This document shows, one piece after another, positions 3,425 through 31,500 of a stretch of DNA of 64,000 nt (positions are counted from its first letter, which is position 1; the number at the start of each line of letters is the position of its first letter). The notes under the pieces were generated by a model. It saw only the letters and a list, made by a program, of their open reading frames with translations, was not told where the DNA came from and ran no database searches. The position numbers and the translations under genes are program-made. The stretch comes from a virus. Taxonomy: Duplodnaviria > Heunggongvirae > Uroviricota > Caudoviricetes. Where the stretch lies: the IMG/VR virus record IMGVR_UViG_2537561978_000005; one strand, 5' to 3'.

Positions 3425-3425
3425 A

Positions 3426-3442
3426 GCCCCGCGATGCGGGGC
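3426..3442. terminator. GC hairpin GCCCCGC-GAT-GCGGGGC between convergent genes
   Basis: perfect 7-bp stem between pacB stop and end of minus-strand gene; A/T-rich flank on minus side. Confidence 0.4.
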
Positions 3443-3451
3443 CGGTTGTGA

Positions 3452-4489: not shown

Positions 4490-4507
4490 TATTCCTACTC
4501 GATTTAG

Positions 4508-4524
4508 TTTTCTAACATAAAATT
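4508..4524. promoter_or_regulatory. operator-like motif TTTTCTAACATAAAATT upstream of 3452..4489
   Basis: TTTAGTTTTCTAACATA shared almost exactly with the site at 18701-18719 (reverse orientation). Confidence 0.35.
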
Positions 4525-5912: not shown

Positions 5913-5915
5913 ATT

Positions 5916-5930
5916 AAATTTCTAACACAT
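5916..5930. promoter_or_regulatory. operator-like motif AAATTTCTAACACAT downstream of cre
   Basis: TTTCTAACA core. Confidence 0.3.
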
Positions 5931-5985: not shown

Positions 5986-6330
5986 TTGCAGAGTCAAATC
6001 ACGGAATCAAGACGCTTCAAGGTGGATGGTTACACCGTAACCTTCGCCGCTGGTGTTAAGAACAGTCATGCTGTCGTTGTGTTCGGCATCATGACCGGGC
6101 TTGAGGCCGTCCCTGTGTTTACCCTCGAAAAAAACTGGCGAAATCTGGAGGAAGCAGAAAGCTACGTCCGGAAAGTAACCATCATTGCCGCCGAAAAACT
6201 CCTGGCCCACTATCAGGAAAATTATCGCACTATGGTCGAGAAGATTAATCTCGCTTTCACTCGCCCCACTACCGGCTTTATTGCACCGGATACTAATGCC
6301 GGTCGATATCCTGCAAGGGGGTGTCGGTGA
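5986..6330 (+). CDS. hypothetical protein
   Basis: 114-aa ORF, TTG start with AGGAGGG RBS 5 nt upstream. Confidence 0.5.
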   Translation: MQSQITESRRFKVDGYTVTFAAGVKNSHAVVVFGIMTGLEAVPVFTLEKNWRNLEEAESYVRKVTIIAAEKLLAHYQENYRTMVEKINLAFTRPTTGFIAPDTNAGRYPARGCR

Positions 6331-10909: not shown

Positions 10910-11299
10910 TCATATAGCAGGACTATCATCAAATTCACCGCCCCTGGCGTCATTGATAATGTGGGTGATCACACCAAAAACAGCATTACTACCCGTGTAA
11001 CCATCGTCATCTACTGGTAACGCCTCTTTCTTCCCGGTGCTTAAATCCTCCAGGTGCTGGCGCGGATACTTCCGGTATCTTTTTACGCGATATTCTCCCT
11101 CCATAGCGCACACAAGCAGCGAACCATCAACTGGAGTAAGCGAAGAATCAACCACCAGCAAAGCACCCTGCAATATTCCCTCACGGTGATGGCTGTCTGC
11201 CGCCCGCATGAAGTATGTCGCTGATGGATGCCTGATTAGTTGCTGATCAAGAGAAATTCGGCTTTCAACATAGTCCGCCGCAGGAGAAGGGAAGCCCAT
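10910..11299 (-). CDS. humD: UmuD'-like protein (HumD), S24 peptidase fold
   Basis: 129 aa; LLVVDSSLTPVDGSLLVCAMEGEYRVKRY resembles UmuD/LexA C-terminal domain. Confidence 0.7.
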   Translation of the reverse strand: MGFPSPAADYVESRISLDQQLIRHPSATYFMRAADSHHREGILQGALLVVDSSLTPVDGSLLVCAMEGEYRVKRYRKYPRQHLEDLSTGKKEALPVDDDGYTGSNAVFGVITHIINDARGGEFDDSPAI

Positions 11300-11546
11300 A
11301 GCGTTTTCACCTCAATAATACTGTTCATTTATACAGTATACATTAAAGAGACACATTTGGTGCAAACGCGTTACGTACATCAACCACCGCAGATGATTTT
11401 GTGCGCTTTGCTACTATTCATCACCAACGAATCAGCGTAACCTCGTTGCCCGGATTAGAGAAATGCAAAACGATAATAAAGGCTAAATCGAGGTAGAAAA
11501 CACATTGTTTAAGGCCACTAATTGTGACCTCAAAGGGGAGAGATGC

Positions 11547-12098
11547 TTATTGGCTATGGCTAAAAATCAAATGAGACACTTCATGTGGTTGTAGCTCGTC
11601 AAGATCCGGGGCCACAAAACCTTTTCCGAAAGACTTCACAAGTGATTCACCAGCCGCATCATTGTCACCTATTACGCGAAAGTCATACGGCAGCATCGCA
11701 AGTTGACGGCGTAATCCTGCGGAGAAAGTTGAACCTAACAGCGCCCACGAATTGCCGCCCGCGTTGTGTACAGCTGCGCTCTTAAAAATAGACTCAGTTA
11801 TCCATATTGGGCCATCTTTTAAAGGAAGATAGGTTCCCCAAAGTAACTGTCTGCCGTGTGATCGCGTGAAATACCGGGCCATCTTCGGATTGCTATGCTG
11901 CTTAGGTGCACCTGGTCTATATGTCTGATACCCAGCCAACATCCCATCAAACCTGTAGAGAGGGAATGTAACTACTCCTTCGCTTTCATCGATCCACTGT
12001 CTATATGGGTGTATATCATGGCGGTAGTTGCGAGTTAGCAAATGAGCTTCCAGCTTTCCAAATTTTGTCATATTCCGTTCTTCCTGCATACTGGGCAT
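11547..12098 (-). CDS. hypothetical protein with TOPRIM-like motifs
   Basis: 183 aa; IWITESIFKSAAV (conserved E) and RVIGDNDAAGE (DxD-AG) resemble TOPRIM signature; unverified. Confidence 0.4.
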   Translation of the reverse strand: MPSMQEERNMTKFGKLEAHLLTRNYRHDIHPYRQWIDESEGVVTFPLYRFDGMLAGYQTYRPGAPKQHSNPKMARYFTRSHGRQLLWGTYLPLKDGPIWITESIFKSAAVHNAGGNSWALLGSTFSAGLRRQLAMLPYDFRVIGDNDAAGESLVKSFGKGFVAPDLDELQPHEVSHLIFSHSQ

Positions 12099-12373
12099 GT
12101 GTTCTCTGTGAAATATGGGAAACTATTATCCAGCTCATCTACCCACTGTTTATGGTCGAAGCAGAAAAATATCTCCCACGGCATTCCATATTCTTCCATC
12201 CATAGGCGGATCTGCATTTCTATTGGAATCGGCGGTATTGCAGACACCATATCAACAGGATAACAGTTCAGACGACGTTCCAGTTCTTCTACTCTCTTCT
12301 GGAGATGAAATATCCGATCCAGATGCACACGCCGCTCCCGTGCCATTTTAAAATAAAGCTCGCCGGTCATCAT
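12068..12373 (-). CDS. small coiled-coil protein with C-terminal FPYF...CPxCR module
   Basis: 101 aa; paralogue of adjacent ORF. Confidence 0.45.
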   Translation of the reverse strand: MMTGELYFKMARERRVHLDRIFHLQKRVEELERRLNCYPVDMVSAIPPIPIEMQIRLWMEEYGMPWEIFFCFDHKQWVDELDNSFPYFTENTCPVCRKNGI

Positions 12374-12657
12374 TAACGCCTACATTCAGGGCAAGAGTTC
12401 CCTTCTGCAAAATAGGGGAAACTGCTATCAAGCTCATCACACCATCTGCGATGGTCGTAGCACCAAAACGCCTCCCACGGTGCACGGAAATACTTCATCC
12501 ACCAGGACACTCGATCAGGTATATCTGCTGGTGGCAGTTCTTCTGGCAATAATTTGCCTGATAATTCCCTTTCCGCCCGCGACAGCATTTTTTTGAGGCT
12601 CGCGTTCTCTTTTTCAAGCTCATCTACGCGCACCTGTAATTCAGCTTTCGTTGGCAT
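12373..12657 (-). CDS. small coiled-coil protein with C-terminal FPYF...CPxCR module (tandem paralogue)
   Basis: start set to internal Met (MPTKAELQ) to avoid overlap with upstream gene; WCDELDSSFPYFAEGNSCPECRR. Confidence 0.45.
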   Translation of the reverse strand: MPTKAELQVRVDELEKENASLKKMLSRAERELSGKLLPEELPPADIPDRVSWWMKYFRAPWEAFWCYDHRRWCDELDSSFPYFAEGNSCPECRR

Positions 12658-14161
12658 GGTCCACCTCATGCTTTTCAGCCACCAGCGGCAATAAAGCCCT
12701 GGCCATCTTATGAACCAATAGTGCATCAATAATGCCAAGCGTATGCCCCGGCTTAATGTTTAATGCCGCCTCAAGGCGACACCTTTCCAGGCCACTTTTC
12801 TCGGCTTGTTTATGATGATCTGGTGTAATAACGTCGCCCAAAACACGGCTAATTCTTTCTCGTAATTGCTGGGTGCCAGCACACTTGATCGCTGTATCGT
12901 GGAGACGGTTAACCAGTTCGCGATAAACATGCGGCTTAATGCGGATACGTTCACCGGTGACGCCCTTTCCTGGCGCTGGCACCGAACTATCCGGAATATC
13001 CGGATAGTTGCCTGCCAGTCTACGCAACACAGCCTTAACGGCCTCAATACGGTCATCATCGCAACTTTCCGCCGTATCTATGCGGTCGAGCATGATGATG
13101 GCGTTATCAATATCAGGATTGCCGGTCCACTCATTACCGCGATTGGATTCGGCAGACTGGTTACCAGATGCGGGTTGATTGTCGGCCTTACCCAGCCTGT
13201 CGTCGCTGCATGAATGCCCTTCCAGCCAGGCCAATGCTTGTCGCATGAAATACGCAATATGCTTGCCGTGGTAATCGTCTTCATCGATGTGAAAAGCGAT
13301 ACTGCGGATATATTCAATTGCGTTTTCAATGGCCTCCGGCGTTACCGGTGCTGACATATTTTGATTTTGGAGTGCCAAGACGCGGCTGGCATCCTCTACG
13401 CCTTTAACTGCATCTGCGCAGTAGTTATAGCGATTGCATTCCACTAACTTCTGCTTGAGATTTTCAATTGCTTGCGCGACATCAGCCTGTATTGGCGGAA
13501 CGGCTGTTTGCTCTCGAACGTCATTAGTCGCTATCGGTTCTGCTGCCAACTGACTGGCATATTTGTTAATGGTAACGATAAGCTCTTGCTCGGCCTCATC
13601 CAGACAATCACCGATACCTCGCCTGTCACCGTCAAAATCATCGAAATCGGCACGAACTCTGGCAAACTTCAGGATTGCTGACAACACCTCACTAGGAATT
13701 ACCGGATAGTTGGTTGACGTTTCCGCGATTTCCCGAAAATTATTGGTTGACGAATTCTTGCTTTCCCGAAAGTTTCCGGACTGAAGCATGGCGGTGCGGC
13801 AGGCGTTCCATATTTCGGCAGCAATATCGCGCTCGCTATCGGTTAATTTGTACGTGGAAACATAGCCAGAGAGCATTTCTACGTTTTCCGGAGTTGCTTC
13901 TTCCGGCACTACCGGCGCTGGCGGGGCGATGCGTCCAAGCAACTTATTTACCTCTTTCGCCATCGCGTCATATTTATCTAAATGGCGATTAGCTTCTAAG
14001 CAGACTCGGCGCATCTGATCTGAGTTAACTCGTTTAACTGGATCTGCTTCCAGCGATGCCAGCGCAATCCGTGCCAGTTCCATTTGTTCACCACGGGTAA
14101 GCCCGTTTTCAAGCGGATTTTTAATGAACAATTCAATACGTTCTTTGGTAATAGTGGTCAT
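12641..14161 (-). CDS. hypothetical modular protein
   Basis: 506 aa; segment HVYRELVNRLHDTAIKCAGTQQLRERI shared with 20749..21387 product. Confidence 0.6.
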   Translation of the reverse strand: MTTITKERIELFIKNPLENGLTRGEQMELARIALASLEADPVKRVNSDQMRRVCLEANRHLDKYDAMAKEVNKLLGRIAPPAPVVPEEATPENVEMLSGYVSTYKLTDSERDIAAEIWNACRTAMLQSGNFRESKNSSTNNFREIAETSTNYPVIPSEVLSAILKFARVRADFDDFDGDRRGIGDCLDEAEQELIVTINKYASQLAAEPIATNDVREQTAVPPIQADVAQAIENLKQKLVECNRYNYCADAVKGVEDASRVLALQNQNMSAPVTPEAIENAIEYIRSIAFHIDEDDYHGKHIAYFMRQALAWLEGHSCSDDRLGKADNQPASGNQSAESNRGNEWTGNPDIDNAIIMLDRIDTAESCDDDRIEAVKAVLRRLAGNYPDIPDSSVPAPGKGVTGERIRIKPHVYRELVNRLHDTAIKCAGTQQLRERISRVLGDVITPDHHKQAEKSGLERCRLEAALNIKPGHTLGIIDALLVHKMARALLPLVAEKHEVDHANES

Positions 14162-14171
14162 GTGTTACTCC

Positions 14172-14435
14172 TTAACCCGCAGTGCTTTCAACTGATGAGG
14201 GGAACAAAATCTTTTCATCAAACCCTGCATTCATATCATGAACAGCAACACACCAATCCATCGACGAACGATTATCAAGAGTCTCCATGATTTCATCCAT
14301 GCGGCGCAGGTCATACAGGTAAATGCTTTTATCGCCAATGGTGTAAAAACCAATTTTTTTCGGTGATGGACAGCGATCAAGAACGTCCTGTAATTCGCTC
14401 AACCATGCTTGTTCTTTTTTTGTCAAAGTTGCCAT
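14172..14435 (-). CDS. hypothetical protein
   Basis: 87-aa ORF in tightly packed operon. Confidence 0.4.
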   Translation of the reverse strand: MATLTKKEQAWLSELQDVLDRCPSPKKIGFYTIGDKSIYLYDLRRMDEIMETLDNRSSMDWCVAVHDMNAGFDEKILFPSSVESTAG

Positions 14436-14436
14436 A

Positions 14437-15075
14437 TCACTCTCCTTTGATGCGAATGCCAGCGACGCGGATTGCAGCGATGACTTCAGAAACTTTGTAT
14501 GCCATTACCGTTTGGTAATCCTCGTGAAAATCTGTTCGATGAAGCATGCTGCTACGTTCTGGGAGCGATATTTCCCGTGCTTCCAGTTCTGCAATGCGCT
14601 TCTCTGCGGATTCCAACGCCGCAACCAATTCGTCTACAGTTCCGGCAGCTTGCAGTGCGTAATCGGTAATAGCCATCTCATGATCAATTTCAGTACCGTT
14701 CTCATTCGTTGAGGTGATAGCAAAATAATCAGAGTCGATTTCGTTATCAGCTAAGTGGCGTAGCGTATCGGCAACAAGCCGGCCGTTTTCGATTAGCAGC
14801 TTCCCTACCGTAAGCGCAATATCCTCGTTCTCCTGGTCGCGAGATTTGATGTATTGCTGGTTTCTTTCCAGTTCATCCAGTAATGCCAAAGCAACCTTTG
14901 GATTAAAGGCAGCAATAAATTCAGCGTTGTTTTTCAGAACGTGTTGCGCAATGGCCTGACCACTTAGTCGGACCTTATAACCACGTGCGCCACGGTGTGG
15001 TTTATATGAGTCCCAGTCTCCCCACGTTGCTTTCTCTGCCGCCTCACGCAGTGCCTGGTAATTAATTTTGCTCAC
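14437..15075 (-). CDS. ead/Ea22-like family protein
   Basis: N-terminus MSKINYQALREAAEKAT and FIAAFNPKVALALLDELE motif typical of enterobacterial prophage ead/Ea22-like proteins. Confidence 0.65.
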   Translation of the reverse strand: MSKINYQALREAAEKATWGDWDSYKPHRGARGYKVRLSGQAIAQHVLKNNAEFIAAFNPKVALALLDELERNQQYIKSRDQENEDIALTVGKLLIENGRLVADTLRHLADNEIDSDYFAITSTNENGTEIDHEMAITDYALQAAGTVDELVAALESAEKRIAELEAREISLPERSSMLHRTDFHEDYQTVMAYKVSEVIAAIRVAGIRIKGE

Positions 15076-15607
15076 TGACTGCCTCCTTCTTAATCAGTTT
15101 ACACAGGTGCTCCACAGCCACAGAGAGTGCATCCACCGCTCGTTTATCCAGACGCGGGGCCAGAGCAAGCAGTTCATTTATTGCAATCTGAATACCATGC
15201 TCCGCCGCCAGCGCCGCGCGATTGCTCTCCAGCTCTGCAATGCGCTGTTTTGCGGTATCAAGTTCAATCGATAATTTTTCCAACTGCTCTTTATGCTTCT
15301 TGTATTCCTGATATGCGTGCCAGGACTGACCTTTGCGCACACTATCAGTAATATCAGTAATCTGTTCTGGTGTTAGAGTGGTCAGTGGCTGTGCTGGGAA
15401 AATCAGCACTTTCCCGGAATCCCAATCAAAACCAGCGTGAATTGACTGAACCTCAACTGAGGGTGTTGAACCAATGCTGCCAGGCGAATGAACAACGATC
15501 GTTACATCCATATCGCGACGATGGCTGTGGTTGTTGGACAAAATACGATTCAACAAAATACGATTCACCAACTCAGAAAATTTGGAGAATTTCATGCGGA
15601 GCCTCAA
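15062..15607 (-). CDS. hypothetical coiled-coil protein
   Basis: 181 aa; C-terminal coiled-coil AELESNRAALAAE. Confidence 0.45.
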   Translation of the reverse strand: MRLRMKFSKFSELVNRILLNRILSNNHSHRRDMDVTIVVHSPGSIGSTPSVEVQSIHAGFDWDSGKVLIFPAQPLTTLTPEQITDITDSVRKGQSWHAYQEYKKHKEQLEKLSIELDTAKQRIAELESNRAALAAEHGIQIAINELLALAPRLDKRAVDALSVAVEHLCKLIKKEAVSEQN

Positions 15608-16014
15608 TATGCAAAATAGACCGTTGCCACGCCGTTATAGTGATCAAACGATACGGCGTTTACTTCATAACTGGCCGGGAGCTTCGAGCCAAGAACGTAT
15701 CCGGGCCACGTTTTCCATGGAATTTCTCTATTCTCACTACCCCCATATACCGTACATCCAAGTGAACCTACAGCTTCATTAGAACGCGTGCCGCACGTTA
15801 TGAATCCCAGATTTTGCTTACTGCTCTTAATGGTGATTGAGTGAACGCTGGCTGATGCATTAGCAGCACGCTGTGCCTGTTGGTTTGCGATATTCGCAGA
15901 GTTCGCAGCAGCTACAGCAGCCGTAGTCGCGGCGGTAGAGGCTACAATAGCTGCTGAAGCATGCACTTGTTGGATATTCACCAACAATGCCGCGATAAAA
16001 ATCATCTTCTTCAC
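15604..16014 (-). CDS. exported small protein (signal peptide)
   Basis: 136 aa; MKKMIFIAALLVNIQQVHA signal-like N-terminus; Ala/Asn-rich. Confidence 0.5.
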   Translation of the reverse strand: MKKMIFIAALLVNIQQVHASAAIVASTAATTAAVAAANSANIANQQAQRAANASASVHSITIKSSKQNLGFITCGTRSNEAVGSLGCTVYGGSENREIPWKTWPGYVLGSKLPASYEVNAVSFDHYNGVATVYFAY

Positions 16015-16733
16015 TTGTCAGCTCCTTTGCGAATCTGTTCCGCCCATTCTTCAAGGGATTTCTCCGCATATTCACCAGACAGGCCATCAATCGGATGCGC
16101 TTCATTAGCCAACTCTTCTTTCGCTGACAAAATCATGCGTGTAACGTCGAAAACTTCACGCAAAGACTTATTGATAAATCCGTGATTGAACGCAGCAGCA
16201 AGACGGCTGGCGGTATAGTTAACTCCCTCGTTGCGTGCTTCCGCACGAATTTCAGCCAGAAAAGCATCGGTGGCTGGCATATTTCCTGTTGCCTTCATGG
16301 CCTCCAAAATAACCAGAACGCCATCTCGCCCAACCTCCTCAGCGATAACCTCGGTGTTGTCGCCAACAACATCGCAGAATGCCTGAACTGCCTTACGAGC
16401 CAGTTCATTCTCCGCCGCCAGCGCCGCGAGATTAGTCTCAAGCTCTGCAATTCGACACATAGCATCAATATTTGTGTCCTCCAGGCGCTTAATTTCACCA
16501 AGAAGCTCCAGTGCAACCTTTGGGTTGAACGCGGCAACATAACGAGCGTTGTTCTCTGCATTTTTCTGTCCATCAAAGCCGGTCCATTTGATAACGTCTT
16601 CACATCGTTCATCACCGGGCGTGTGCACCGCATAAGTACCAGTATCCGTCGAAATAAATGCGACCCATTCGTCTGGTGTTGCCTTTTCTGCCGCCTCACG
16701 CAGTACCTGATAGTCAATTGTCATTCTCGCCAT
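16011..16733 (-). CDS. ead/Ea22-like family protein
   Basis: DYQVLREAAEKATPDEW and YVAAFNPKVALELLGEIK motifs; C-terminal module shared with 19942..20445. Confidence 0.65.
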   Translation of the reverse strand: MARMTIDYQVLREAAEKATPDEWVAFISTDTGTYAVHTPGDERCEDVIKWTGFDGQKNAENNARYVAAFNPKVALELLGEIKRLEDTNIDAMCRIAELETNLAALAAENELARKAVQAFCDVVGDNTEVIAEEVGRDGVLVILEAMKATGNMPATDAFLAEIRAEARNEGVNYTASRLAAAFNHGFINKSLREVFDVTRMILSAKEELANEAHPIDGLSGEYAEKSLEEWAEQIRKGADK

Positions 16734-17365
16734 CCTTCACAGTTGTAATCACGACAGCCTTCAAAATCATATGGGCTGTACTGCCAGGTTATTTTTCCGC
16801 AATGCGGACAATTCCAACGCACCTTCCCGCTTCGCGACTTCTTTCTTCTGTTCTGCTCTTTCAACCAGTCAGGCATGACCAAACCTGCGCCCTGAACCAT
16901 TGTTCTGCGGTTAAAGTTATTGATATTGAACGTCCGGCGCTTTGCTGCATCAGCAATGGAAAATGGCAACCAAACTATTCCTGGTTCGTTTTTGTTGGCG
17001 AAGCTAAAGATGGTCGCTTTACTGAAGTCATCTGTTGGCAATCCACCGTGTTGAAGCCAGTAAACATCGTTGCCGTTCCAGCTACCTTTTTTGTAGGCCA
17101 CATACTCAGTGCAATCTGACTCAATCAGGCTTTCTGTAGGGATGTACTGGCAATCAACGTGCCACACAGCCATTGCATCCACACTATCGGCACAAACAGG
17201 CTGATCGATATCTCGCCCACAATTCCAGGCTTTTTGGGCTTCTTCCAGCGTGTAAATATGAGCGCGATCGATATCAGAACTGTAACCATTGCCGTTATGG
17301 CAATGGAATGAGGCGTTATTACCCACAGTTTCACGCAAGCACATCATGTAAAAGCGGTTATTCAC
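16721..17365 (-). CDS. hypothetical Cys-rich protein with C-terminal zinc-ribbon-like CPHCG...C..C
   Basis: 214-aa ORF. Confidence 0.5.
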   Translation of the reverse strand: MNNRFYMMCLRETVGNNASFHCHNGNGYSSDIDRAHIYTLEEAQKAWNCGRDIDQPVCADSVDAMAVWHVDCQYIPTESLIESDCTEYVAYKKGSWNGNDVYWLQHGGLPTDDFSKATIFSFANKNEPGIVWLPFSIADAAKRRTFNINNFNRRTMVQGAGLVMPDWLKEQNRRKKSRSGKVRWNCPHCGKITWQYSPYDFEGCRDYNCEGWRE

Positions 17366-17651
17366 TGGTTGCCTCCGCTTCCCACGTTTTCAGACTTTCA
17401 CCACAGAATGGGCAAAATGAAACTCGAATAGGCGATTTAGAAAATTCACCAGACCGCAGCATGATCAGGTCTTGTGAATGAATTAATTCATGGTTATAGA
17501 TTTTGTATTTCAGCAGACCTTTCCGCGTCGTGTATTCAGCATCCTGCTCCAGAGATTGTGCCAACGCCGCGCACGGTTCTATTTTTTTGTCATTAATCAA
17601 ACAAGTGGAGATTCTGCACTTTGCAGCTCCGTCACCATTACCTTGACTCAT
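17358..17651 (-). CDS. hypothetical protein
   Basis: 97-aa ORF overlapping neighbours. Confidence 0.4.
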   Translation of the reverse strand: MSQGNGDGAAKCRISTCLINDKKIEPCAALAQSLEQDAEYTTRKGLLKYKIYNHELIHSQDLIMLRSGEFSKSPIRVSFCPFCGESLKTWEAEATSE

Positions 17652-17664
17652 TGCATTGCTCCCA

Positions 17665-18660
17665 TCAGTTATTGAACGTGATCACTCCGCGCTCAATGGC
17701 GAAGTCGAAAAGCTGGTTAGCGGCTACGTAAAGGCGTATGCCATGTGCTTTTTCCCATGCCCGGACATCGTTTTCTGCGCTTCTGGCGCAGTCATCGCAA
17801 AGAGGAACAGTCCAGCGGTCGTGTTCGTTTAACGAGCGGGCGCGGTACATGAATGGGTGATTAACCTTGCCGCCGCAGCCTACACACGGGCGAGACACCA
17901 CAAACCGGAGATAAGCCGGGCTTTTTCCGAGTAAGGTTTTTGGACGGCGCATATATAGGAGGCCAGAATCTTCATCGACGGACAGATTGACGATCTGCTC
18001 TGCGGAAATATCCACCAGCTCGCGGGTACTATGCTCCCAAGTAATATCCGACTCTTTCAGAGTGCCGGTAGGGATTTCAGTTTTTGGCTGACAAAATGCA
18101 ATGCGACCAGCTTCATCAGGCAGTTCGTCTTTAAGATTCCGGCGAATGGCCCAAAAGGTGAGTTCAACCATGCTCAGATCGCGATCTGGCGGAAGTTTTA
18201 ACTCGCTGGCAGCCCAGTTCATAATCCAGTTGGCGCGATTCAGTGACAGTTGGTCTTCCAGCTTGCCGTATCCCTTCATCATGTATTCCGCATCATGCTT
18301 CCAGCACAGGCGAACGGCAGAACCGTTATAGAAATGGGTGGTTAGCTGGTGGCTGCAATCGCGCTTATCATGCACCTGGCAATCGTGAATGTTGGTGCTA
18401 ACCCAGTGAACGAGAGAATCCTCACCACCTAACGCGTTAAATACGCGCTCACTTTGAAAAAAGGGTGCCAGTGACTGGTTGGCAACCAGTGAATAATTCA
18501 GGTCAACGACACCATCAGGGGTGTTTTCAGCCTGTTCACGCGGCAATGGGGATATAAGAAAACGGCGTCCTGCGCCGATGTAATTGCTGGTGGGCTTATC
18601 TACAGGAAAGACAGCCACACCAGTTTCATTTACGACATATGGGGTGATTATTGCACTCAT
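17665..18660 (-). CDS. hypothetical protein with CxxC...CxxC zinc-binding motif
   Basis: 331 aa; CVGCGG ... CDDC. Confidence 0.55.
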   Translation of the reverse strand: MSAIITPYVVNETGVAVFPVDKPTSNYIGAGRRFLISPLPREQAENTPDGVVDLNYSLVANQSLAPFFQSERVFNALGGEDSLVHWVSTNIHDCQVHDKRDCSHQLTTHFYNGSAVRLCWKHDAEYMMKGYGKLEDQLSLNRANWIMNWAASELKLPPDRDLSMVELTFWAIRRNLKDELPDEAGRIAFCQPKTEIPTGTLKESDITWEHSTRELVDISAEQIVNLSVDEDSGLLYMRRPKTLLGKSPAYLRFVVSRPCVGCGGKVNHPFMYRARSLNEHDRWTVPLCDDCARSAENDVRAWEKAHGIRLYVAANQLFDFAIERGVITFNN

Positions 18661-18700
18661 AATGCATACCGACTCTGTTTTGTTCCGATCGGTAAAATAA

Positions 18701-18732
18701 TATGTTAGAAAACTAAAATCAATGTTCTAACG
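18701..18732. promoter_or_regulatory. pair of operator-like motifs (TGTTAGAAAACTAAAAT and TGTTCTAACG)
   Basis: internal to leftward operon, between 18889..19200 and 17665..18660. Confidence 0.3.
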
Positions 18733-18888
18733 TGATTTTGAGTGCGTAAATGATTTGATCAGACTTTAAGCTGCCCTCCCTTCACCTGCATTAGCGTCAG
18801 ATTTCCGCTAAAAACCGCGCCCGTGTCTAGTTTCTATAGCCAGAACCATCAATACGGCTATATAAATTCACTTCATGCAGAGCCTGGG

Positions 18889-19200
18889 TCATGCGGCAAC
18901 CTTCTCACGCAGCCAGATACAAACCGGACCATCTTCAGTGTCATGAATAGAGCCAACAAACCAGCCTTCACCCTCTGGTCGCTCCGGTTCCCAGGCGGCA
19001 ATATCGGGACCAGCTGCGTCCAGATCAAAATCATCTTCATCCATACTGCGAATAGTCCACTGAAGATTATTTTCCTTCATCCAGGCGTCAAATTCCTCAG
19101 TGGAAATATATTCACGACCTGCGCAAAACTTCTCATACTCCGGATGTGTCCAGCAGCCATATTCATCACGTTCTACCGGCATTTCTTTAATTGTGTTCAC
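18889..19200 (-). CDS. hypothetical acidic protein
   Basis: 103-aa ORF. Confidence 0.45.
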   Translation of the reverse strand: MNTIKEMPVERDEYGCWTHPEYEKFCAGREYISTEEFDAWMKENNLQWTIRSMDEDDFDLDAAGPDIAAWEPERPEGEGWFVGSIHDTEDGPVCIWLREKVAA

Positions 19201-19421
19201 TCTTCATCCTCCAAATCAGCAACCGCGTCCATCACATCAGAACCGCGAATAACTTCAAAAGCGCGGCAGGCCATTTGAAATACCCGTTGCTCTTGCGGGT
19301 GCGGAGACTCCCAATATTTGAAGCCTGGGCGATGCGTGTACCCCATCATGGAATAAAAATCGCCAGCAAGTTCAATCGCGGCATCAACAAGTTCGCGATT
19401 TGTCATCGTCTGTTCTGTCAT
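19197..19421 (-). CDS. hypothetical protein
   Basis: 74-aa ORF, overlapping stop/start with neighbours. Confidence 0.4.
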   Translation of the reverse strand: MTEQTMTNRELVDAAIELAGDFYSMMGYTHRPGFKYWESPHPQEQRVFQMACRAFEVIRGSDVMDAVADLEDEE

Positions 19422-19693
19422 TTGGTTTTCTCCTGTCTGAACATCACTATCATCAGGTCGCCTTTTGTCGCTATTCTGGCTGTTGTGCCTGGTTCAATGC
19501 GGCTAAGTTCAAATGCGTCATAGAACGCTTCTAATGCCTTCTGGCGTAGTTCCTGTTTGCGCCGTTTTTTCCACTCTTTTAGGAAAATGGAACCCAGCCA
19601 TCGCCAGGTACGGGACATGATGTAAAGCCAACCAAGAAGTGCCAGACCGGTATTTAGGGCCGTATCGAGCGTTATCGTGGTGTCGATATTCAC
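19418..19693 (-). CDS. hypothetical small protein (hydrophobic N-terminus)
   Basis: 91-aa ORF. Confidence 0.4.
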   Translation of the reverse strand: MNIDTTITLDTALNTGLALLGWLYIMSRTWRWLGSIFLKEWKKRRKQELRQKALEAFYDAFELSRIEPGTTARIATKGDLMIVMFRQEKTK

Positions 19694-19938
19694 TGTGGTG
19701 GTTCCTGCTTTTCTGCCTTCAATACCATGCGAGAACCATCATCCAGCTCCCAATTAATTTCACCGCCTTCTGCCATGACCAGATGCCAGACGAGTTGAGC
19801 GGCCTCGTTGGTTACATCACGACCGCGATCATTGCCAACACGACGTTTTGTTCCATCCCCTAAGTCACGCATTTTTGCCAACACGATGGTTTTTGATAGC
19901 GGTGAAAAACCAAGCTGTAGTCGTGCGGTATTACTCAC
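19690..19938 (-). CDS. hypothetical protein
   Basis: 82-aa ORF. Confidence 0.4.
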   Translation of the reverse strand: MSNTARLQLGFSPLSKTIVLAKMRDLGDGTKRRVGNDRGRDVTNEAAQLVWHLVMAEGGEINWELDDGSRMVLKAEKQEPPQ

Positions 19939-19941
19939 TGT

Positions 19942-20445
19942 TTACCTTCCTTTTCTAAGCTGTTCGGCGATATCTTCGAGAACGCCATCAGAGAATGAGC
20001 GGTCAAAATCGCCTTCCCGCGCATTAGCCATAAACTCAGTAGAGGTAAGAATCATCCGGGCAATATCCGCGGCGTTCTTCGCAGTATCATCAATAAAACC
20101 AGCTTCCCAAGCAGCCAGCATCCTGTTCGCCACAAAGTAAGCGCCCTCCTTGCGTGCTTCAGTCTTCACTTCATCCAGGAAAGTGTCGGTCGCAGGAGTG
20201 GTTTTTTGTGGTGATAGGGCGAGACGAATTGTTTCGAGAGCTGGATCTATTTCCACTGTTGGCACCTTGATAAAGCCAAGCTGCACGCCATTCATAATGA
20301 ACGTGCGGCGATCCTCACATATCGCATTCAGTCTCGCATTCTCCGCCGCCAGCGCAGCACACGCTTTCTCAAGTCGGGAAATTTCCGTTACATACTCAGC
20401 GTTACGCTCTGCCAGTTGTGCTGGCGTTAAACCTTCAGACTTCAT
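19942..20445 (-). CDS. ead/Ea22-related modular protein
   Basis: 167 aa; coiled-coil LAAENARL plus C-terminal module homologous to the C-terminus of 16011..16733. Confidence 0.5.
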   Translation of the reverse strand: MKSEGLTPAQLAERNAEYVTEISRLEKACAALAAENARLNAICEDRRTFIMNGVQLGFIKVPTVEIDPALETIRLALSPQKTTPATDTFLDEVKTEARKEGAYFVANRMLAAWEAGFIDDTAKNAADIARMILTSTEFMANAREGDFDRSFSDGVLEDIAEQLRKGR

Positions 20446-20752
20446 GTACTCTCCTTTCGAAATAAACGTACTGATTAATCATGCCCAGGGGCATTTCGAG
20501 TTTTTCCGCGATCTCACGGCGGGGAACACCACACTGATGAAGCTGCCGCGCCAGTTCTATATCGCTCTGCCGGAATTTGGCTGACGGATGAAAGTCTCCT
20601 TTCAGAATCATGCTGATCCCCAACTCCCGCGCTTTAGTCCTGACGGCATCACCGGTACGACCGATCAGCTTCCCAATACTCTCGACCGTCATAGTTCCGG
20701 CGCACTGGCGGAGTATCATGATTTCTGCCCTTCCCCATCCCCGCCAGCTCAC
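20435..20752 (-). CDS. putative HTH DNA-binding protein
   Basis: 105 aa; TVESIGKLIGRTGDAVRTKARELGI helix-turn-helix-like. Confidence 0.45.
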   Translation of the reverse strand: MSWRGWGRAEIMILRQCAGTMTVESIGKLIGRTGDAVRTKARELGISMILKGDFHPSAKFRQSDIELARQLHQCGVPRREIAEKLEMPLGMINQYVYFERRVHEV

Positions 20753-21387
20753 GCAGAACTCCTTCTAACCAAAAGAACGCCATCTTCAGAAACAACGTTG
20801 CAGGACTTCAGGTAATTCATTGCCTCTTTCGGTAATGGATTCTTTGGATCGGCGTTTGCCAGGGATTTCGATAACCTCATGATAAATTTGATCATTACCT
20901 TCTGGCGGAGCTTGTGCTCATGAGATAAAGACAGGTAATAGGAAATGGTATGGGCTAAACGCTCACGAAGCTGTTCTGTGCCGTGATATACAGCAGCGAT
21001 ATCACGCAGTGCATTGACCAGTTCCCGGTAAATATGCGGAGCAACCTGGCATTCAATGTTGGTTGGTGACTCATAAATTACAGTCAGCCCCAGCTTTTCA
21101 GCCAGCGCGTGCTCTGCGCGAGCACCAACCGATTCTTCCCATCGATTGAGCAAGTAGATCGCATCAGCAGAACGCACCATTGCCAGGCAAATATCCATGT
21201 ATTCACTCTGACAAAGGCCACCAGGTAACATAGCTGGATTCAGAACGATATGCCCTTCAGCCATCAACTCGCTCGCTTTCGCATTAAACGCCGCACGGTT
21301 GTAATCTGGATAACCAGTCATCGGCCCCGCGATGTAAATTTTCAAAACACGTTTCACCATCAAAATTTCCCCAGAATCGTGACGCAA
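20749..21387 (-). CDS. DUF4406-like (nucleoside 2-deoxyribosyltransferase-like) domain protein
   Basis: IYIAGPMTGYPDYNRAAF ... HIVLNPA motif; likely start is internal Met at 21360 (TGATG coupling to upstream small ORF). Confidence 0.55.
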   Translation of the reverse strand: MRHDSGEILMVKRVLKIYIAGPMTGYPDYNRAAFNAKASELMAEGHIVLNPAMLPGGLCQSEYMDICLAMVRSADAIYLLNRWEESVGARAEHALAEKLGLTVIYESPTNIECQVAPHIYRELVNALRDIAAVYHGTEQLRERLAHTISYYLSLSHEHKLRQKVMIKFIMRLSKSLANADPKNPLPKEAMNYLKSCNVVSEDGVLLVRRSSA

Positions 21388-21512
21388 AACATAAGCACTG
21401 CGAAAAGCTCAATACCAAGCTCAAGTAGCGCCAACGCCCCGAAAAACAACACATAGAACAGGCCAATCTCATTCACAGATGGCTGGTGGATCGCACTTAA
21501 AGCTATAAGCAT
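21360..21512 (-). CDS. small hydrophobic protein (50 aa), first gene of leftward operon
   Basis: GGAGGA 4 nt upstream of ATG; stop TGA overlaps next ATG; below the 60-aa cut-off of the ORF track. Confidence 0.3.
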   Translation of the reverse strand: MLIALSAIHQPSVNEIGLFYVLFFGALALLELGIELFAVLMFCVTILGKF

Positions 21513-21550: not shown

Positions 21551-21570
21551 TTTGTGTTAGAAAATCAATT
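21551..21570. promoter_or_regulatory. operator-like motif TTTGTGTTAGAAAATCAATT in divergent promoter region
   Basis: between leftward operon start and ref-like gene. Confidence 0.35.
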
Positions 21571-21632: not shown

Positions 21633-22211
21633 ATGCAGAAACAGAGTTATTGGGAGAAACAGAGACAAAAAGCCATGCAAAAATTGGCTGACCCGGCCTG
21701 GCGAGAGGAACAAAGGGCAAAGCGCCTTCAACAAGCTCAACGCCAGCAGCAGCGAGCGAGAGAAAAAGCCGCATCGCCTGAATATCGGCAAAAGAAAATT
21801 GAAAAAGCAAAGCAATATGAACAGCGGAGAAAAGATAAAGCTGTATCCGCTCCGTCCAAAAAAACACGCACGTCACGCGGCCTGAAAGGCAGATCACTCA
21901 CAGCCGATGAACGCCGGATACAGACCGCTATCGGTGCTCTCCCCTGCATTGCCTGCCATATTCACGGGCAACATAGCCCAGTGGTATCCCTGCACCATAT
22001 CTTCGGGAGAACGGCAGAGAACGCGCATAAATATGTCCTCCCTTTGTGTAAATGGCACCACCAGTACGCAGCGCCAGCCGAGGTCAGAGAACAATATCCC
22101 TGGCTGGTCCCTGTTCATGCTGACGGAAAAATAGGCGGAAAAGCAGATTTCATGCGGCACAATGCCGATGAAATGACGTTGTATCAGATGGCGATTGAGT
22201 TGATAAATTAG
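21633..22211 (+). CDS. ref: Ref-like HNH-family nuclease
   Basis: 192 aa; highly basic low-complexity N-terminal ~95 aa then His/Cys-rich core (LPCIACHIHGQH ... LCKWHH), as recalled for P1 Ref. Confidence 0.5.
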   Translation: MQKQSYWEKQRQKAMQKLADPAWREEQRAKRLQQAQRQQQRAREKAASPEYRQKKIEKAKQYEQRRKDKAVSAPSKKTRTSRGLKGRSLTADERRIQTAIGALPCIACHIHGQHSPVVSLHHIFGRTAENAHKYVLPLCKWHHQYAAPAEVREQYPWLVPVHADGKIGGKADFMRHNADEMTLYQMAIELIN

Positions 22212-22226
22212 TTTTCTAACATTTTA
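22212..22226. promoter_or_regulatory. operator-like motif GTTTTCTAACATTTT
   Basis: immediately after ref-like stop, upstream of immI-like region. Confidence 0.3.
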
Positions 22227-24850: not shown

Positions 24851-25156
24851 ATGCTCTATGCGGTTCCTCAGCAAGCTTCTGATTCTTTGAAGTTAATCAA
24901 GACTGTACTTCAGCTTATAGCATCTCAACAAGAAGTGTCACAGCAGTTAAAGTTACGGGTTTATGAGGTGATCAGAGAAGCCTCAAACTTAAGTGTAGAT
25001 AAAGGTGATCAATTACAGATTCCTTCTCACAGAGAGTCCATCTCGCTCGCGGTAGAGATACGCCACACTAAGGCGCTCGCCCAGGTGCTAACCAAAGTAA
25101 CTAGCGAAGATATGTTAGAACCCGTAATGGCCCGGAATGTATTAGAGTACATTTAA
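24851..25156 (+). CDS. hypothetical small helical protein (first gene of AT-rich cassette)
   Basis: 101 aa; GGAGGGG RBS; stop overlaps next start (TAATG). Confidence 0.5.
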   Translation: MLYAVPQQASDSLKLIKTVLQLIASQQEVSQQLKLRVYEVIREASNLSVDKGDQLQIPSHRESISLAVEIRHTKALAQVLTKVTSEDMLEPVMARNVLEYI

Positions 25157-26229
25157 TGCTTGCATTTACACAACTTACATTAGTTCGAAATAAGCTAAGG
25201 GAGATATCAGAATCTCCCTATTTTTCTAAAGACATGCATGAATATCTTGCTGTTCTACAAGAAGCGGTAGATAAGCTCTATGAAAACCATGTGAATGTTG
25301 CTGATAAAATAATTGCGGATTGTACTTTTTTTATCACCGATGCAGTTAATTTTTTCACTGGCAGTACTACAAAGAAAATTCCCTACGAGATTGTTTATTG
25401 CTTAAATGATGCCTGTAAAAAATGGATAAGTGAAAAAACACTTATAACCACAGCCCTATCTCCAGATATGCATGGGTTTTATTTTAAGTCTGTAAACAAG
25501 AATTTGTATTCTTTATTTGATGAAGTTTTAAATGTCAAATTCGAGGTCGAATTAATTCAGATTTCATTACCTGAAATGTACAGAAGACGACCATTATGCT
25601 CTATACCTTTATATCACGAATTGGGACATTTCGTTGATATTAGCAAAGGTATTTCTGAGCTTGCCTGTCTTAACTATCGTTCCAAGGACAAAGGCACACT
25701 TCCAGGACCAGAATGGAGTAATCTACCTGATGTTATTTGGATAAATCATTGCAGAGAATATTTTGCAGATCTATTTAGTGCCCAATTTATTGGAAAAAGT
25801 GGGGTAGATTTCTTATACAAATTAGCTGGCTCTCATCCTGCAAGCTATACTCACCCATCCACAGAAGATAGAGTTAAAATTGTAAGCGACTTTTTGAACA
25901 AAGTGGAAAATCCAGTTGTTGGCATGTTCAATGCTGTGATATCAGCCTTACATAAGGGTGGGCAGATTATTTCTCCTTGTTTGACATTGCCGACACCTTT
26001 GCTTGATGTGAAATCAGCTTTTGATAATGTGCGTCCTTTTGTTATTCGCGACCACAATGAAATGCATGCTTTTATTAACAGCAGCTGGCAGTACTTATGC
26101 TCTGAATGGGAAAAACCTACGGGTATATGGTCTGGGTTGTCAAAAGAAGCCATAGAAAAAACTATAAATGATTTGGTTGAAAAATCGATTCGAAACGTAA
26201 TGATTCTTGAAAAATGGAGTGCACAATGA
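25156..26229 (+). CDS. ImmA/IrrE-type (COG2856-like) HExxH zinc metallopeptidase domain protein
   Basis: 357 aa; LYHELGHFVD followed ~35 aa later by REYFADLFSAQFIG (E-x-FA signature). Confidence 0.55.
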   Translation: MLAFTQLTLVRNKLREISESPYFSKDMHEYLAVLQEAVDKLYENHVNVADKIIADCTFFITDAVNFFTGSTTKKIPYEIVYCLNDACKKWISEKTLITTALSPDMHGFYFKSVNKNLYSLFDEVLNVKFEVELIQISLPEMYRRRPLCSIPLYHELGHFVDISKGISELACLNYRSKDKGTLPGPEWSNLPDVIWINHCREYFADLFSAQFIGKSGVDFLYKLAGSHPASYTHPSTEDRVKIVSDFLNKVENPVVGMFNAVISALHKGGQIISPCLTLPTPLLDVKSAFDNVRPFVIRDHNEMHAFINSSWQYLCSEWEKPTGIWSGLSKEAIEKTINDLVEKSIRNVMILEKWSAQ

Positions 26230-26843
26230 ATCTCCTAAGCAAAGCTGAATTGCTGCAATATTATGAATCAGAAGAACCTGAGTCGTTGTTCATTGAACCT
26301 CTTCTAAATAAAAACCAAATTGGAAACTTCACCATAGACCTTAGACTTGGTTACGATTTTTTAGTGTCTATTATGACAAGGAAGCCGTCAATAGAGTTAA
26401 TTCCCTCAAAAAACAATGATACTCATCAACCAATCAGAACATTTTTCCAGGAAACAAGGAGAGATCTTGGGGATAGGTTCATTGTTTACCCGAATCAAGT
26501 GGTACTGGCAACAACATTAGAATATGTTTGTTTGCCACCAGATTGCTACGCTGATGTATTGTCCAGAAGCAGCTATACAAGGCTTGGTCTTTCATTAAAT
26601 ACCATGATACAACCAGGGTACAGAGGCTGTATATCTTTAGAGTTATTTAATCATGGGAATAGCCCTGTAGAACTTATTGTTGGATCTCGCATATGTCAAA
26701 TTCGTATATTCAAGAATGAAACTGTCGGTGAATACATAAGTCATGAGTCTCACAGGAAATATTTCGGAAATGTGAGGCCAACCGTCTCAGCAGCAGAAAG
26801 TGATAATGAATTAAATATGCTGGAAAAGATCCGACAAAAATGA
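26226..26843 (+). CDS. dCTP deaminase / dUTPase-superfamily protein
   Basis: IDLRLG, SRSSYTRLGL and IQPGYRGCISLELFN match recalled Dcd motifs VDVRLG, GRSSLARLGL, IDPGWSGCIVLEFYN; start coupled (ATGA). Confidence 0.65.
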   Translation: MNLLSKAELLQYYESEEPESLFIEPLLNKNQIGNFTIDLRLGYDFLVSIMTRKPSIELIPSKNNDTHQPIRTFFQETRRDLGDRFIVYPNQVVLATTLEYVCLPPDCYADVLSRSSYTRLGLSLNTMIQPGYRGCISLELFNHGNSPVELIVGSRICQIRIFKNETVGEYISHESHRKYFGNVRPTVSAAESDNELNMLEKIRQK

Positions 26844-26931
26844 AGACTTTAATGCTTTATATTATAAAAACATACAGCGACAACGCAGCCACCAAGATGT
26901 GTTGTCGCCATGTTCAAAGTGCTAACACAGT

Positions 26932-27324
26932 TTAAAAATCACCTGCGCGCTGTTTTTCAAGCACAGATTTAACATTTGGCACTTTCCCTTTAAAAGAATG
27001 GAAAGTGCCACATTTTTCTGTTTTAACTTCGCGCAGAGCTTCGCCATCGGCGTTCTGCCATTGATGGGATAATGTCATATCACCGCGAGAAGGAACATCC
27101 AGCGAGTACAGCGTGTAAGTTCCCCCCATCTCCGCATACTCCTGGAACACATAGCTCATTACGTCAGATTCAGTTTTTCGGTGTACGTTATCAACCTTAT
27201 TCCCATTCAGAAATATGGCATCTGGATAGATTTTTATATCAAACCGACCGCACTTAACTTGTAAATTTCCGGCGCTCGCGATCAAAGGGAAAGACGCCAG
27301 TAAAGCAATTGTCAATCTTTTCAA
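26932..27324 (-). CDS. exported protein (signal peptide), hypothetical
   Basis: 130 aa; MKRLTIALLASFPLIASA signal-like N-terminus. Confidence 0.5.
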   Translation of the reverse strand: MKRLTIALLASFPLIASAGNLQVKCGRFDIKIYPDAIFLNGNKVDNVHRKTESDVMSYVFQEYAEMGGTYTLYSLDVPSRGDMTLSHQWQNADGEALREVKTEKCGTFHSFKGKVPNVKSVLEKQRAGDF

Positions 27325-27968: not shown

Positions 27969-28185
27969 GTAAACAAAATGAAGTTTTATGTTATAAAAAC
28001 AATTAACTACATCAACATGATTTAGGCCAAATTTCGGTCAAAAAATAAAATCCACAAAAAGTGGTTGACACTATTTTGGAAATCACAAACTGCACATAAT
28101 CCATCGCGCTAACGGCTCCCGTTGAAGGTTCTTTTGACGATTAACTTTCAGCCGAAGCGCGGTAGGGAGTCATAACGCCAAAGCA

Positions 28186-28890: not shown

Positions 28891-29218
28891 TCACATTAGT
28901 AGCTTTGTTAACTCCCTCAATACCAGGTAGAAGAGTAACAAAAATATTGACGCGAGTATTTGAGTGGTCAATGAAGCGTTCATAAACAGATCAATTAGCA
29001 TTAATAATTCGAATATAACATCCATGTCATTCACTCCGTTTAATTTTTAATCTAATGCCAGCAAATGAAGCTGGCCCCCGCACAAAGATTAATGAAAGTC
29101 ACTTGTCACCAGTGAGGGGATTTATGAACCACATCCCCCTGAACTGGTGGCCTGTCTGTTTCTCACATTTCACACCCTGCATACAGTTTCCCCCAGGTTA
29201 TGACTGAGAGGCTTTGTT

Positions 29219-29548
29219 ATGGGCTATAGCAGACTCGACGACAGGTACATTGAAGACGATATTTTTCGTGCGCTGTTTCACCAGGAAATGATTAAGCGGG
29301 TATCGGAGTATCACTCTGATAATTTCCAGTACACGATAAAGATTGATGAAGTATATCGTTCAGACCTTGCAGCCTACCGGGCGTATGGCAATGCAGATTT
29401 GCGCTGGGTATTCCGGGTGCTGGTGGGCCATGAGTCAGAAATGGAAGAAATGCCCGCCGGGACCACGTTAACTCTTCCTGATGTGGCATGGCTGAGGAAC
29501 AAGATCCGTGATTACGCGAGCGCGGAACCGGAGATAGAAAATGCCTGA
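29219..29548 (+). CDS. hypothetical protein
   Basis: 109-aa ORF; overlaps next gene start. Confidence 0.45.
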   Translation: MGYSRLDDRYIEDDIFRALFHQEMIKRVSEYHSDNFQYTIKIDEVYRSDLAAYRAYGNADLRWVFRVLVGHESEMEEMPAGTTLTLPDVAWLRNKIRDYASAEPEIENA

Positions 29549-31496: not shown

Positions 31497-31500
31497 ATAA

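Follow-up and report, generated by a model that had tools for sequence, protein, structure and literature searches.

A hypervariable accessory gene array of a D6-like phage-plasmid, with lambdoid-type cargo and predicted C1 operators

Introduction

The stretch from pmgT to humD is one of eight hypervariable regions in P1-like phage-plasmids (PMC9603915). In P1 it is called variable region 8 (pmgT-pmgU-pmgV-upfMNO-hot-lxr-humD), with the operator OpmgT at its head. The P7 'hea operon' is likewise headed by an annotated C1 operator, Op(hea), and adjoins humD, and in phage D6 (NC_050154; Gilcrease and Casjens 2018) orf88-105 lie between ref and humD-phd-doc. D6-like elements have been described as carriers of c1 (PMC6799933). 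Here we analyze an array of 20 minus-strand open reading frames (ORFs), named g01 to g20, at positions 11547-21512 of the virus record IMGVR_UViG_2537561978_000005 in IMG/VR. Its whole stretch of 64,000 nucleotides, hereafter the window, is by its homologies a D6-like (P1g2) phage-plasmid, and the array lies at the corresponding locus.

Genes at this locus are largely dispensable for plaque formation in P1, where pmgL to pmgV score as non-essential by CRISPR interference with the exception of pmgN, which was non-essential in an earlier study; pdcB and lambda ea22 are likewise non-essential (PMC10695390). The sole experimental phenotype reported for the Ea22 family is a pro-lysogenic effect of the tetrameric early protein of lambda and Stx phages (PMC7093339, PMC10834534), which is built from a conserved N-terminus and coiled coil followed by an exchangeable C-terminal domain (PMC10834534). 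A first-pass annotation of the window had described the array as one leftward operon of about 20 genes, a lambdoid-style early region grafted into a P1-like backbone.

Results

We consider it likely that the array is a hypervariable accessory locus of the D6 lineage beside humD-phd-doc, composed of two C1-repressed early units whose cargo is exchanged with lambdoid phages. Judged by position and homology, it is the counterpart of D6 orf88-105, of the P7 'hea operon' and of P1 variable region 8. Homologues of the Cre-like recombinase, Phd/Doc, HumD, Ref, Lpa and PacA identify the backbone as P1-related, as the first-pass annotation had said, and more precisely as D6-like; it further holds Icd/Ant-type immunity genes, tail and capsid genes, RepB and ParM. 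The array is flanked by ref and humD, its locus in this plasmid prophage has no int/xis, and no tRNAs were found. At the nucleotide level it is 99.7% identical to Escherichia coli plasmid p95_MLI121 (NZ_CP117014.1, RefSeq) over 98% of the region and 94.7% identical to D6 over 46%, and only 2 of 716 matching plasmids cover at least 80% of its gene set.

When the array is set against D6, P7 and a group of four D6-like plasmids, conserved anchors (g20-g19-g18; g15-g14-g13 with ppp; g12-g11; g03 with the tail of g04) can be told apart from variable positions. One variable slot lies between g18 and g15 and holds g17 and g16 here, a second lies between g11 and g04 and holds g10 to g05, and an alternative cassette adjoins humD, consisting of the TOPRIM gene and g02 here and of hot in both D6 and P1. 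In two plasmids the g07-g08 cassette, found in the second slot here, occupies the first. Neighbouring genes differ widely in their synonymous divergence (dS) from D6, which spans 0.02 to 0.49 and fits a patchwork of exchanges of different ages. Because the locus is shared with D6, P7 and P1, the array is not a special graft: in D6 and P7 this locus holds similar genes, and remnants persist in P1. Conservation of the operon in classical P1 had been named beforehand as a finding that would refute the first-pass reading, and it holds by half: what P1 conserves is the locus and the type of content, not the gene set (P1 was compared at the protein level over its coordinates 1-3000 and 66000-94800, and elsewhere by megablast).

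Two observations concern single genes of these relatives. The g03 homologue of D6 (6001-6269 of the compared stretch L002) appears to be frameshifted, since the match splits over two reading frames (residues 1-27 and 27-93); D6 orf105 is annotated there with 50 amino acids (aa). In P7, the g01 homologue beside humD is split by IS903 into pieces at 2598-2729 and 3754-3861, with IS903 at 2732-3788 (stretch L007), each piece bearing its own annotation as a small 'upf' ORF.

Adjacent genes of the array overlap by 1-31 nt or are spaced by 1-13 nt, with a 228-bp gap at 18661-18888 as the sole exception. We regard all 20 ORFs as real genes under selection because every product matches a PHROG (E 1e-15 to 1e-119, mostly below 1e-30) and because the ratio of non-synonymous to synonymous substitution (dN/dS) against D6 is 0-0.31 for the eight shared genes compared codon by codon. 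The tight packing on the minus strand was therefore described correctly, whereas the single operon should probably be divided into two transcription units, since the gap holds a remnant of ppp and an operator/promoter-like site. This remnant of a NinI-type phosphatase gene (18777-18888) has lost 559 bp internally relative to D6, with the junction at 18829|18830 (blastn), and tblastn with P1 Ppp recovers only residues 209-226 in the window. The gene is intact in D6, P1, P7 and most D6-like plasmids; the closest RefSeq plasmid carries the same 559-bp deletion.

The P1 C1 operator consensus ATTGCTCTAATAAATTT has no match in the window with up to three mismatches, and the immunity specificity of the element therefore appears to differ from that of P1. 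This result prompted a search for an alternative motif. The 17-mer WTRTGTTAGAAAAYTAA was found at nine sites, compared to 1.1 expected, and none of 100 shuffles reached nine. Eight of these sites fall outside ORFs of at least 100 aa, which fill 84% of the window. The motif, also given as TTGTGTTAGAAAATNAA, has an invariant GTTAG core, is akin to the P1 operator but differs from it, marks intergenic regions throughout the element, including those upstream of mat-side genes, and is probably the operator set of a D6-type C1 repressor. Three of the sites, which precede the homologues of lpa, c1 and ref, correspond in position to P1 operators (Olpa, Oc1 and Oref), and P1 ref is annotated as controlled by C1 through Oref. 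A C1 homologue was located by tblastn with P1 C1 at 3695-4471 on the minus strand.

Two of the predicted operators stand at the heads of the array. O1 (minus-strand reading TTGATTTTCTAACACAA) overlaps a -35-like TTGATT (21568-21563), which is followed after 16 nt by TAATAT (21546-21541) on the minus strand, and it has the same position in D6 and p95_MLI121. O2 coincides exactly with the 17-nt spacer of a second promoter-like pair on the minus strand, TTGATT (18722-18717) with TATTTT (18699-18694), and is kept in D6 at 10180 of the compared stretch (L002). Because the predicted operators overlap promoter-like sequences at both heads, we interpret the array as a pair of early units under C1 repression, in which promoters, operator function, repressor binding and timing of expression are inferred from sequence. 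A consensus scan found no strong internal minus-strand promoter in the array. The -22 box of P1 late promoters is not enriched in the window (16 sites, 15.4 expected), and its only occurrence in the array is a one-mismatch site within the ppp remnant, wrongly spaced. There is also no sign of LexA control of the array: CTGT-N8-ACAG occurs once in the whole window, at humD, where a LexA site is annotated at the matching position in both P1 and P7.

A perfect palindromic copy of the P1 -22 box (AAGTGACTT / AAGTCACTT) was seen outside the array at 29096-29104, about 120 bp upstream of a gene-26 (baseplate) homologue (29228-29515). Because this layout mirrors the divergent LP26/LPpmgL arrangement of P1, recognition by Lpa may be conserved though recognition by C1 is not.

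The array's lambdoid character is clear at the level of gene type. Nucleotide matches of 90-97% identity were obtained in 439 phage records, the majority of them from Stx-converting, P22-like and lambda-like phages. In a P22-like phage, xis and recT enclose a g10 homologue (96%) together with one Ea22 and one DUF551 gene, all downstream of N; by its gene order this position is the early-left operon. Together with the 'Eae protein' module described below, this placement bears out the lambdoid-style early genes that the first-pass annotation had recognized.

Sharing of modules among the products was examined by all-against-all BLASTP, and every pair claimed beforehand is statistically supported (E 2e-9 to 2e-21). 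The tandem paralogues g02 and g03 match at 42% over 90 aa (E 2e-21), the HVYRELVN...QLRER module is common to g04 and g19 (44% over 50 aa, E 2e-9), and g09 and g17 have a C-terminal module in common (39% over 93 aa, E 5e-18). The N-terminal Ead module of g06 and g09 matches at 43% over 79 aa (E 4e-13). Three products had been credited with Ead/Ea22-type modules. With membership defined as a PF13935 (Ead_Ea22) score above the 27-bit gathering threshold, g06 (99.1 bits) and g09 (73.6 bits) are full members and no third was found; g07 and g17 are unmatched by the profile and only partial. A motif scan likewise located the REAAEKAT...AAFNPKVAL module only in g06 and g09. What g07 and g17 share is a coiled-coil junction (RIAELE / ALAAEN), to which g17 adds the C-terminal module. 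That module is named 'Eae protein' by NCBI and has about 1000 relatives with extremely variable N-termini; its AlphaFold2 model (pLDDT 65.6) was too uncertain for a structure search. The C-terminal modules of the array differ from the C-terminal domain of lambda Ea22, to which a PDB sequence search gave no match.

Within otherwise divergent Ea22/Eae-type genes, short islands of DNA are nearly identical (Table 1). The 15-mer GCGCTGGCGGCGGAG, which codes for ALAAE, has exactly three copies in the window where none is expected, and it is at the edge of this ALAAEN island that the window and D6 cease to be homologous. A second island, coding for YQxLREAAEKAT, is shared by g09 and g06, and homology blocks with P7 and with a P22-like phage end within its g09 copy. 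To compare flanks, exact matches in IMG/VR contigs were sorted by their upstream and downstream 60-nt flank types. A 19-mer of the ALAAEN island (131 occurrences) joins 33 upstream with 43 downstream types in 76 combinations that include 38 four-gamete quartets, and an 18-mer of the LREAAE island (146 occurrences) joins 18 with 13 types in 42 combinations with 20 quartets. A control 19-mer in g10 (103 occurrences) has two upstream types and one downstream type, in two combinations and no quartet. Because the islands show so many flank combinations compared to two for the control, these data point to repeated crossovers at or beside them. The ALAAEN island also contains GCTGGCGG, which is one base away from the E. 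coli Chi sequence GCTGGTGG.

A more speculative proposal, to which we give a minor share of probability, is that the islands, beyond being conserved peptide motifs, are maintained as joints of a built-in domain-shuffling system that pairs N-terminal scaffolds with C-terminal effectors drawn from a large pool. Such shuffling would act between the genomes of temperate enterobacterial phages and phage-plasmids as well as among the three or four paralogues of one operon, which may co-assemble through their coiled coils.

Individual genes are listed in Table 1. The DUF4406-like and TOPRIM-like proteins noticed earlier are g19 and g01, the secreted small protein corresponds to g08, whose signal-peptide-like N-terminus is visible in the sequence and would direct export, and the Cys motifs of the zinc-ribbon proteins are equally apparent. 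In g10 the four Cys residues are invariant in 40 homologues, its relatives span Escherichia to Acinetobacter, and the predicted model is confident (pLDDT 93.9) with no structural neighbour in a structure search. The trio g15-g14-g13 (18889-19693) has 4-nt overlaps, 84-100% protein identity to D6 and dN/dS of 0-0.31. The g12 counterparts in D6 and P1 carry an HNH endonuclease annotation, and g18 is present in every D6-like relative checked. The composite g04 has an internal breakpoint relative to D6 at 13489/13490; its C-terminal 120 aa, which include HVYRELVN...QQLRER, are 94% identical to P1 PmgU, in which the C-terminal module of g19 also recurs. The only gene unlike that of the closest RefSeq plasmid is g06 (59% identity).

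From its alignments, g01 is a TOPRIM-core protein and not a complete DnaG-type primase, which would comprise a zinc-binding domain, an RNA-polymerase core with TOPRIM and a helicase-interaction domain: it retains the E and DxD motifs and is labelled a toprim domain protein in RefSeq, but it aligns only with positions 143-333 of a 435-position primase PHROG and lacks the N-terminal zinc domain. It had no Pfam match at E<=0.01, is 40-48% identical to small 'DNA primase' ORFs in T5-like and jumbo phages, and takes the slot that in D6 and P1 belongs to hot, a theta-subunit homologue. PDB sequence searches with g01, g09, g10 and g19 gave no match, and an NCBIfam search with all 20 products gave nothing useful.

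Table 1. Positions of the array genes, their boundaries, predicted operators and sequence islands in the window
Feature	Positions	Strand	Basis and remarks
ref homologue	21633-22211	+	RefSeq and D6 annotation; upstream array boundary, divergent from the same operator-containing region
O1, predicted C1 operator	21552-21568	+	in the 108-bp divergent g20/ref region
g20, 50-aa hydrophobic small protein (D6 orf88)	21360-21512	-	phrog_8890, 3e-35; 98% identical to D6; start is the second ATG, 5 nt past GGAGG
g19, DUF4406 domain (nucleoside 2-deoxyribosyltransferase-like) and C-terminal HIYRELVN...EQLRER	20749-21387	-	Pfam PF14359, 1e-33; 203 aa by the annotated start in relatives
g18, small DNA-binding (helix-turn-helix-like) protein	20435-20752	-	phrog_323 'transcriptional regulator', 8e-28; RefSeq 'DNA-binding protein'; conserved anchor
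g17, variable N-terminus, ALAAEN junction, Eae-type C-terminal module	19942-20445	-	phrog_14548/614/368
ALAAEN-coding island in g17	20337-20358	-	invariant DNA; candidate recombination joint
g16, DUF7446	19690-19938	-	Pfam, 6e-18; variable cassette, absent from D6
g15, DUF4752	19418-19693	-	Pfam and PHROG; first of anchor trio
g14	19197-19421	-	PHROG; middle of anchor trio
g13	18889-19200	-	PHROG; last of anchor trio
Inter-unit gap (ppp remnant and 98-bp intergenic stretch)	18661-18888	-	tblastn with P1 Ppp; blastn against D6
O2, predicted C1 operator	18700-18716	+	motif scan; upstream of g12
g12, DUF968, P1 PdcB homologue	17665-18660	-	Pfam, 4e-45; 38% to P1 PdcB, E 1e-73
g11, 97 aa, C-terminal CPFC motif, P7 Upf87.4	17358-17651	-	phrog_4030; 94% to P7, 97% to D6
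g10, 214 aa, four-Cys ribbon, P7 Upf87.6	16721-17365	-	predicted confident orphan fold
g09, Ead/Ea22 N-terminal module, coiled coil RIAELE...ALAAEN, Eae-type C-terminal module	16011-16733	-	PF13935, 3e-20
YQxLREAAEKAT-coding island in g09	16678-16719	-	partner in g06 at 15026-15067; second candidate joint
g08, 136 aa, signal-peptide-like N-terminus MKKMIFIAALLVNIQQVHA|SA	15604-16014	-	phrog_8805, 1e-85; mobile cassette; two relatives have it in the other variable slot
g07, distinct N-terminal domain and RIAELE...ALAAEH coiled-coil junction	15062-15607	-	phrog_6026 and part of phrog_368
g06, Ead/Ea22-like, own C-terminal module	14437-15075	-	PF13935, 4e-28
g05, 87 aa	14172-14435	-	phrog_1714, 2e-50
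g04, 506-aa composite, N-terminal and central parts EaA/Upf89.5-like	12641-14161	-	16 PHROGs on different segments
g03, coiled coil and C-terminal xFPYF..CPxCR	12373-12657	-	phrog_3797; tandem paralogue of g02
g02, coiled coil and C-terminal xFPYF..CPxCR	12068-12373	-	phrog_3797; tandem paralogue of g03
g01, stand-alone TOPRIM/primase-core-like, 183 aa	11547-12098	-	phrog_849, 5e-54
Imperfect hairpin, then T-rich stretch	11508-11534	-	just past g01; weak terminator candidate, consensus match only
LexA box heading humD (10910-11299, minus strand)	11321-11336	+	downstream array boundary
15-mer copies	15200-15214 (g07), 16410-16424 (g09), 20341-20355 (g17)		within the ALAAEN island
Operator-like site	71-87		upstream of lpa homologue
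Operator-like site	4504-4520		upstream of c1 homologue
Operator-like sites, inverted pair	35757-35773, 35776-35792
Other operator-like sites	5914-5930, 27986-28002, 46389-46405; weaker 22205-22221

Elsewhere in the window, a 553-aa ORF at 39029-40690 on the minus strand is the counterpart of glnS (glutamine--tRNA ligase) annotated in the near-identical plasmid. Its region is locally GC-rich (0.53 over a kilobase), and phage-plasmids do not usually carry aminoacyl-tRNA synthetases. Low GC content at 25001-27000 and 31001-32000 (0.34-0.37, compared to about 0.47 for the window) suggests other recently acquired cargo; in the near-identical plasmid a HigB/HigA pair and hypothetical genes are annotated in the general area of these patches.

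Discussion

If the preferred reading is correct, unit A would run from g20 to g13, formerly continuing into ppp, and unit B from g12 (DUF968) to g01 (TOPRIM). A 17-bp C1 site over each head promoter would keep both units silent in the plasmid prophage, and induction or infection would lead to early transcription as translationally coupled polycistrons; it is from the placement of the predicted operators over the promoter-like sequences that prophage silence and early expression follow. The cargo would consist of dispensable, non-structural genes of the type that lambdoid phages carry in their nin and early-left 'ea'/exo-xis regions: scaffolds of the Ead/Ea22 and Eae types with exchangeable C-termini, an EaA/PmgU composite, DUF4406, DUF968, DUF4752 and TOPRIM proteins, and small zinc-ribbon proteins. 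Homologous recombination, both among paralogues and with lambdoid phages, would keep this gene set in flux, with crossovers at gene boundaries and at the islands.

By analogy with the exo-xis region of lambda, the collective role of these genes is most likely the tuning of host physiology and of the decision between lysis and lysogeny, plus early transactions of nucleic acids and nucleotides, for which several of the products would be the enzymes. An anti-defence role, which the first-pass annotation had raised together with host takeover, may also fit the predicted timing. General Pfam, NCBIfam, PHROG and PDB searches, none of them against an anti-defence library, gave no anti-defence annotation.

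Several points weigh against this interpretation. The C1 homologue matches P1 C1 at only 21% identity over 268 aa (E 3e-6), the number of operator-like sites expected comes from whole-window shuffles in which AT-rich intergenic DNA is not modelled, and both head promoters fall below the threshold of a sigma-70 consensus scan, which detected none there on the minus strand. Exact-match ascertainment and redundant IMG/VR contigs inflate the counts of the island test, and strong selection on the peptide motifs may contribute to island conservation. Moreover, the ppp deletion is a sign that parts of the array can decay, and at least 15 of the 20 products are without known function.

Among the alternatives, one that we find unlikely is a lysogenic-conversion or defence island, expressed from the resident prophage to protect the host from phages or to alter its surface. 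Variable prophage loci often hold defence systems, TOPRIM and HNH-like domains are nuclease-type folds, and the signal-peptide-like export signal of g08 and the putative membrane peptide g20 are of a kind often seen in superinfection-exclusion proteins. However, operator-like sites lie over both promoter-like sequences, the lambdoid homologues belong to the repressed PL operon, and no strong internal promoter was found on the minus strand. PADLOC, whose models cover defence systems and not anti-defence, gave no match for 19 products and a single one of 16 bits, below threshold, for the C-terminal part of g19.

It is quite improbable that the array is selfish or decaying passenger DNA that brings no benefit to the phage and is re-seeded by recombination. 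The dispensable homologues in P1 and lambda (PMC10695390), the deleted ppp, the frameshifted g03 homologue of D6 and the IS903-disrupted TOPRIM gene of P7 could all be explained in this way, but all 20 ORFs here are intact and tightly coupled, and the dN/dS values of the eight genes compared indicate constraint. The invariant residues and confident predicted fold of g10, which is conserved from Escherichia to Acinetobacter, and the measurable phenotype of lambda Ea22 (PMC7093339) are equally hard to reconcile with passenger DNA.

We give still less credence to the idea that this one element received a lambdoid early region recently and in a single graft, even though several segments match P22-like and Stx phages at 96-97% identity and so few plasmids carry most of the gene set. 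The locus, anchors and operators are found in D6 and in every D6-like plasmid examined, the P7 set is collinear, and the spread of dS speaks for many small exchanges of differing age rather than a single insertion. Finally, a late morphogenetic operon, as suggested by the 'putative morphogenetic function' labels of P1 PmgT, PmgU and PmgV and the similar label of D6 orf104, and by the placement of the P1 late promoters LPpmgL and LPhot in the syntenic stretch, is very improbable given that Pfam and PHROG reveal no structural or assembly-like product, that -22 boxes occur at chance frequency, that the lambdoid homologues are early genes, and that P1 pmgL-pmgV and pdcB are non-essential (PMC10695390; pmgN per the earlier study).

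The hypervariable accessory locus that we favor exemplifies an early accessory gene pool common to P1/D6-type phage-plasmids and lambdoid phages. If the D6-type C1 operator motif is genuine, it defines the early regulon of a widespread family of plasmid prophages in E. coli and Salmonella. Exchange of Ea22/Eae-type modules appears to be concentrated at two short invariant DNA islands, and g10 is a well-conserved protein with a confident predicted fold unlike anything solved. Should any of the approximately 15 uncharacterized proteins be a host-takeover or anti-defence factor, the variable slots would be the place to mine for more.

Compared with the lambdoid ea/exo-xis regions (lambda ea22; P22 eaA, ead and eae), the array has the same gene families at up to 96-97% nucleotide identity, the same tight leftward packing and the same mosaic Ea22 build. 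It differs in having neither int/xis or recombination genes nor an N-antitermination context, and in its predicted control by a P1-type C1 repressor at several operators. Moreover, a lambdoid ea/exo-xis region is defined by a location in the PL operon, between recombination genes and xis/int, whereas the array lies between ref and humD. From its sequence, then, the array has the gene content of a lambdoid ea region and yet is not one.

The P1 and P7 loci share the position of the array. Like the array, variable region 8 of P1 adjoins humD, but P1 retains little beyond PmgT/PmgU, 93-94% identical to the g04 tail, and PdcB, 38% identical to g12. The collinear set of P7 reads upf87.4 (94% to g11), upf87.6 (98% to g10), an Ead-like gene, upf89.5 (g04-like), the TOPRIM gene and humD. 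In both phages pdcB (DUF968) lies beyond doc and ref is elsewhere, and their repressor/operator specificity is different, as the lack of P1-type operators in the window indicates.

The closest described system is the orf88-105 locus of D6, which has the same flanks and the same strand. About half of its DNA is replaced here, where g05-g10 and g16-g17 fill the two variable slots, TOPRIM and g02 stand in place of hot and orf106, and ppp is deleted. Both loci nevertheless carry the small membrane peptide, the DUF4406 and helix-turn-helix proteins, the DUF4752 trio, DUF968 with its 97-aa neighbour and the PmgU-like tail, and both operator-like sites are held in common. A near-identical copy is already in RefSeq, and the array is a typical member of this D6-type locus and no new kind of system.

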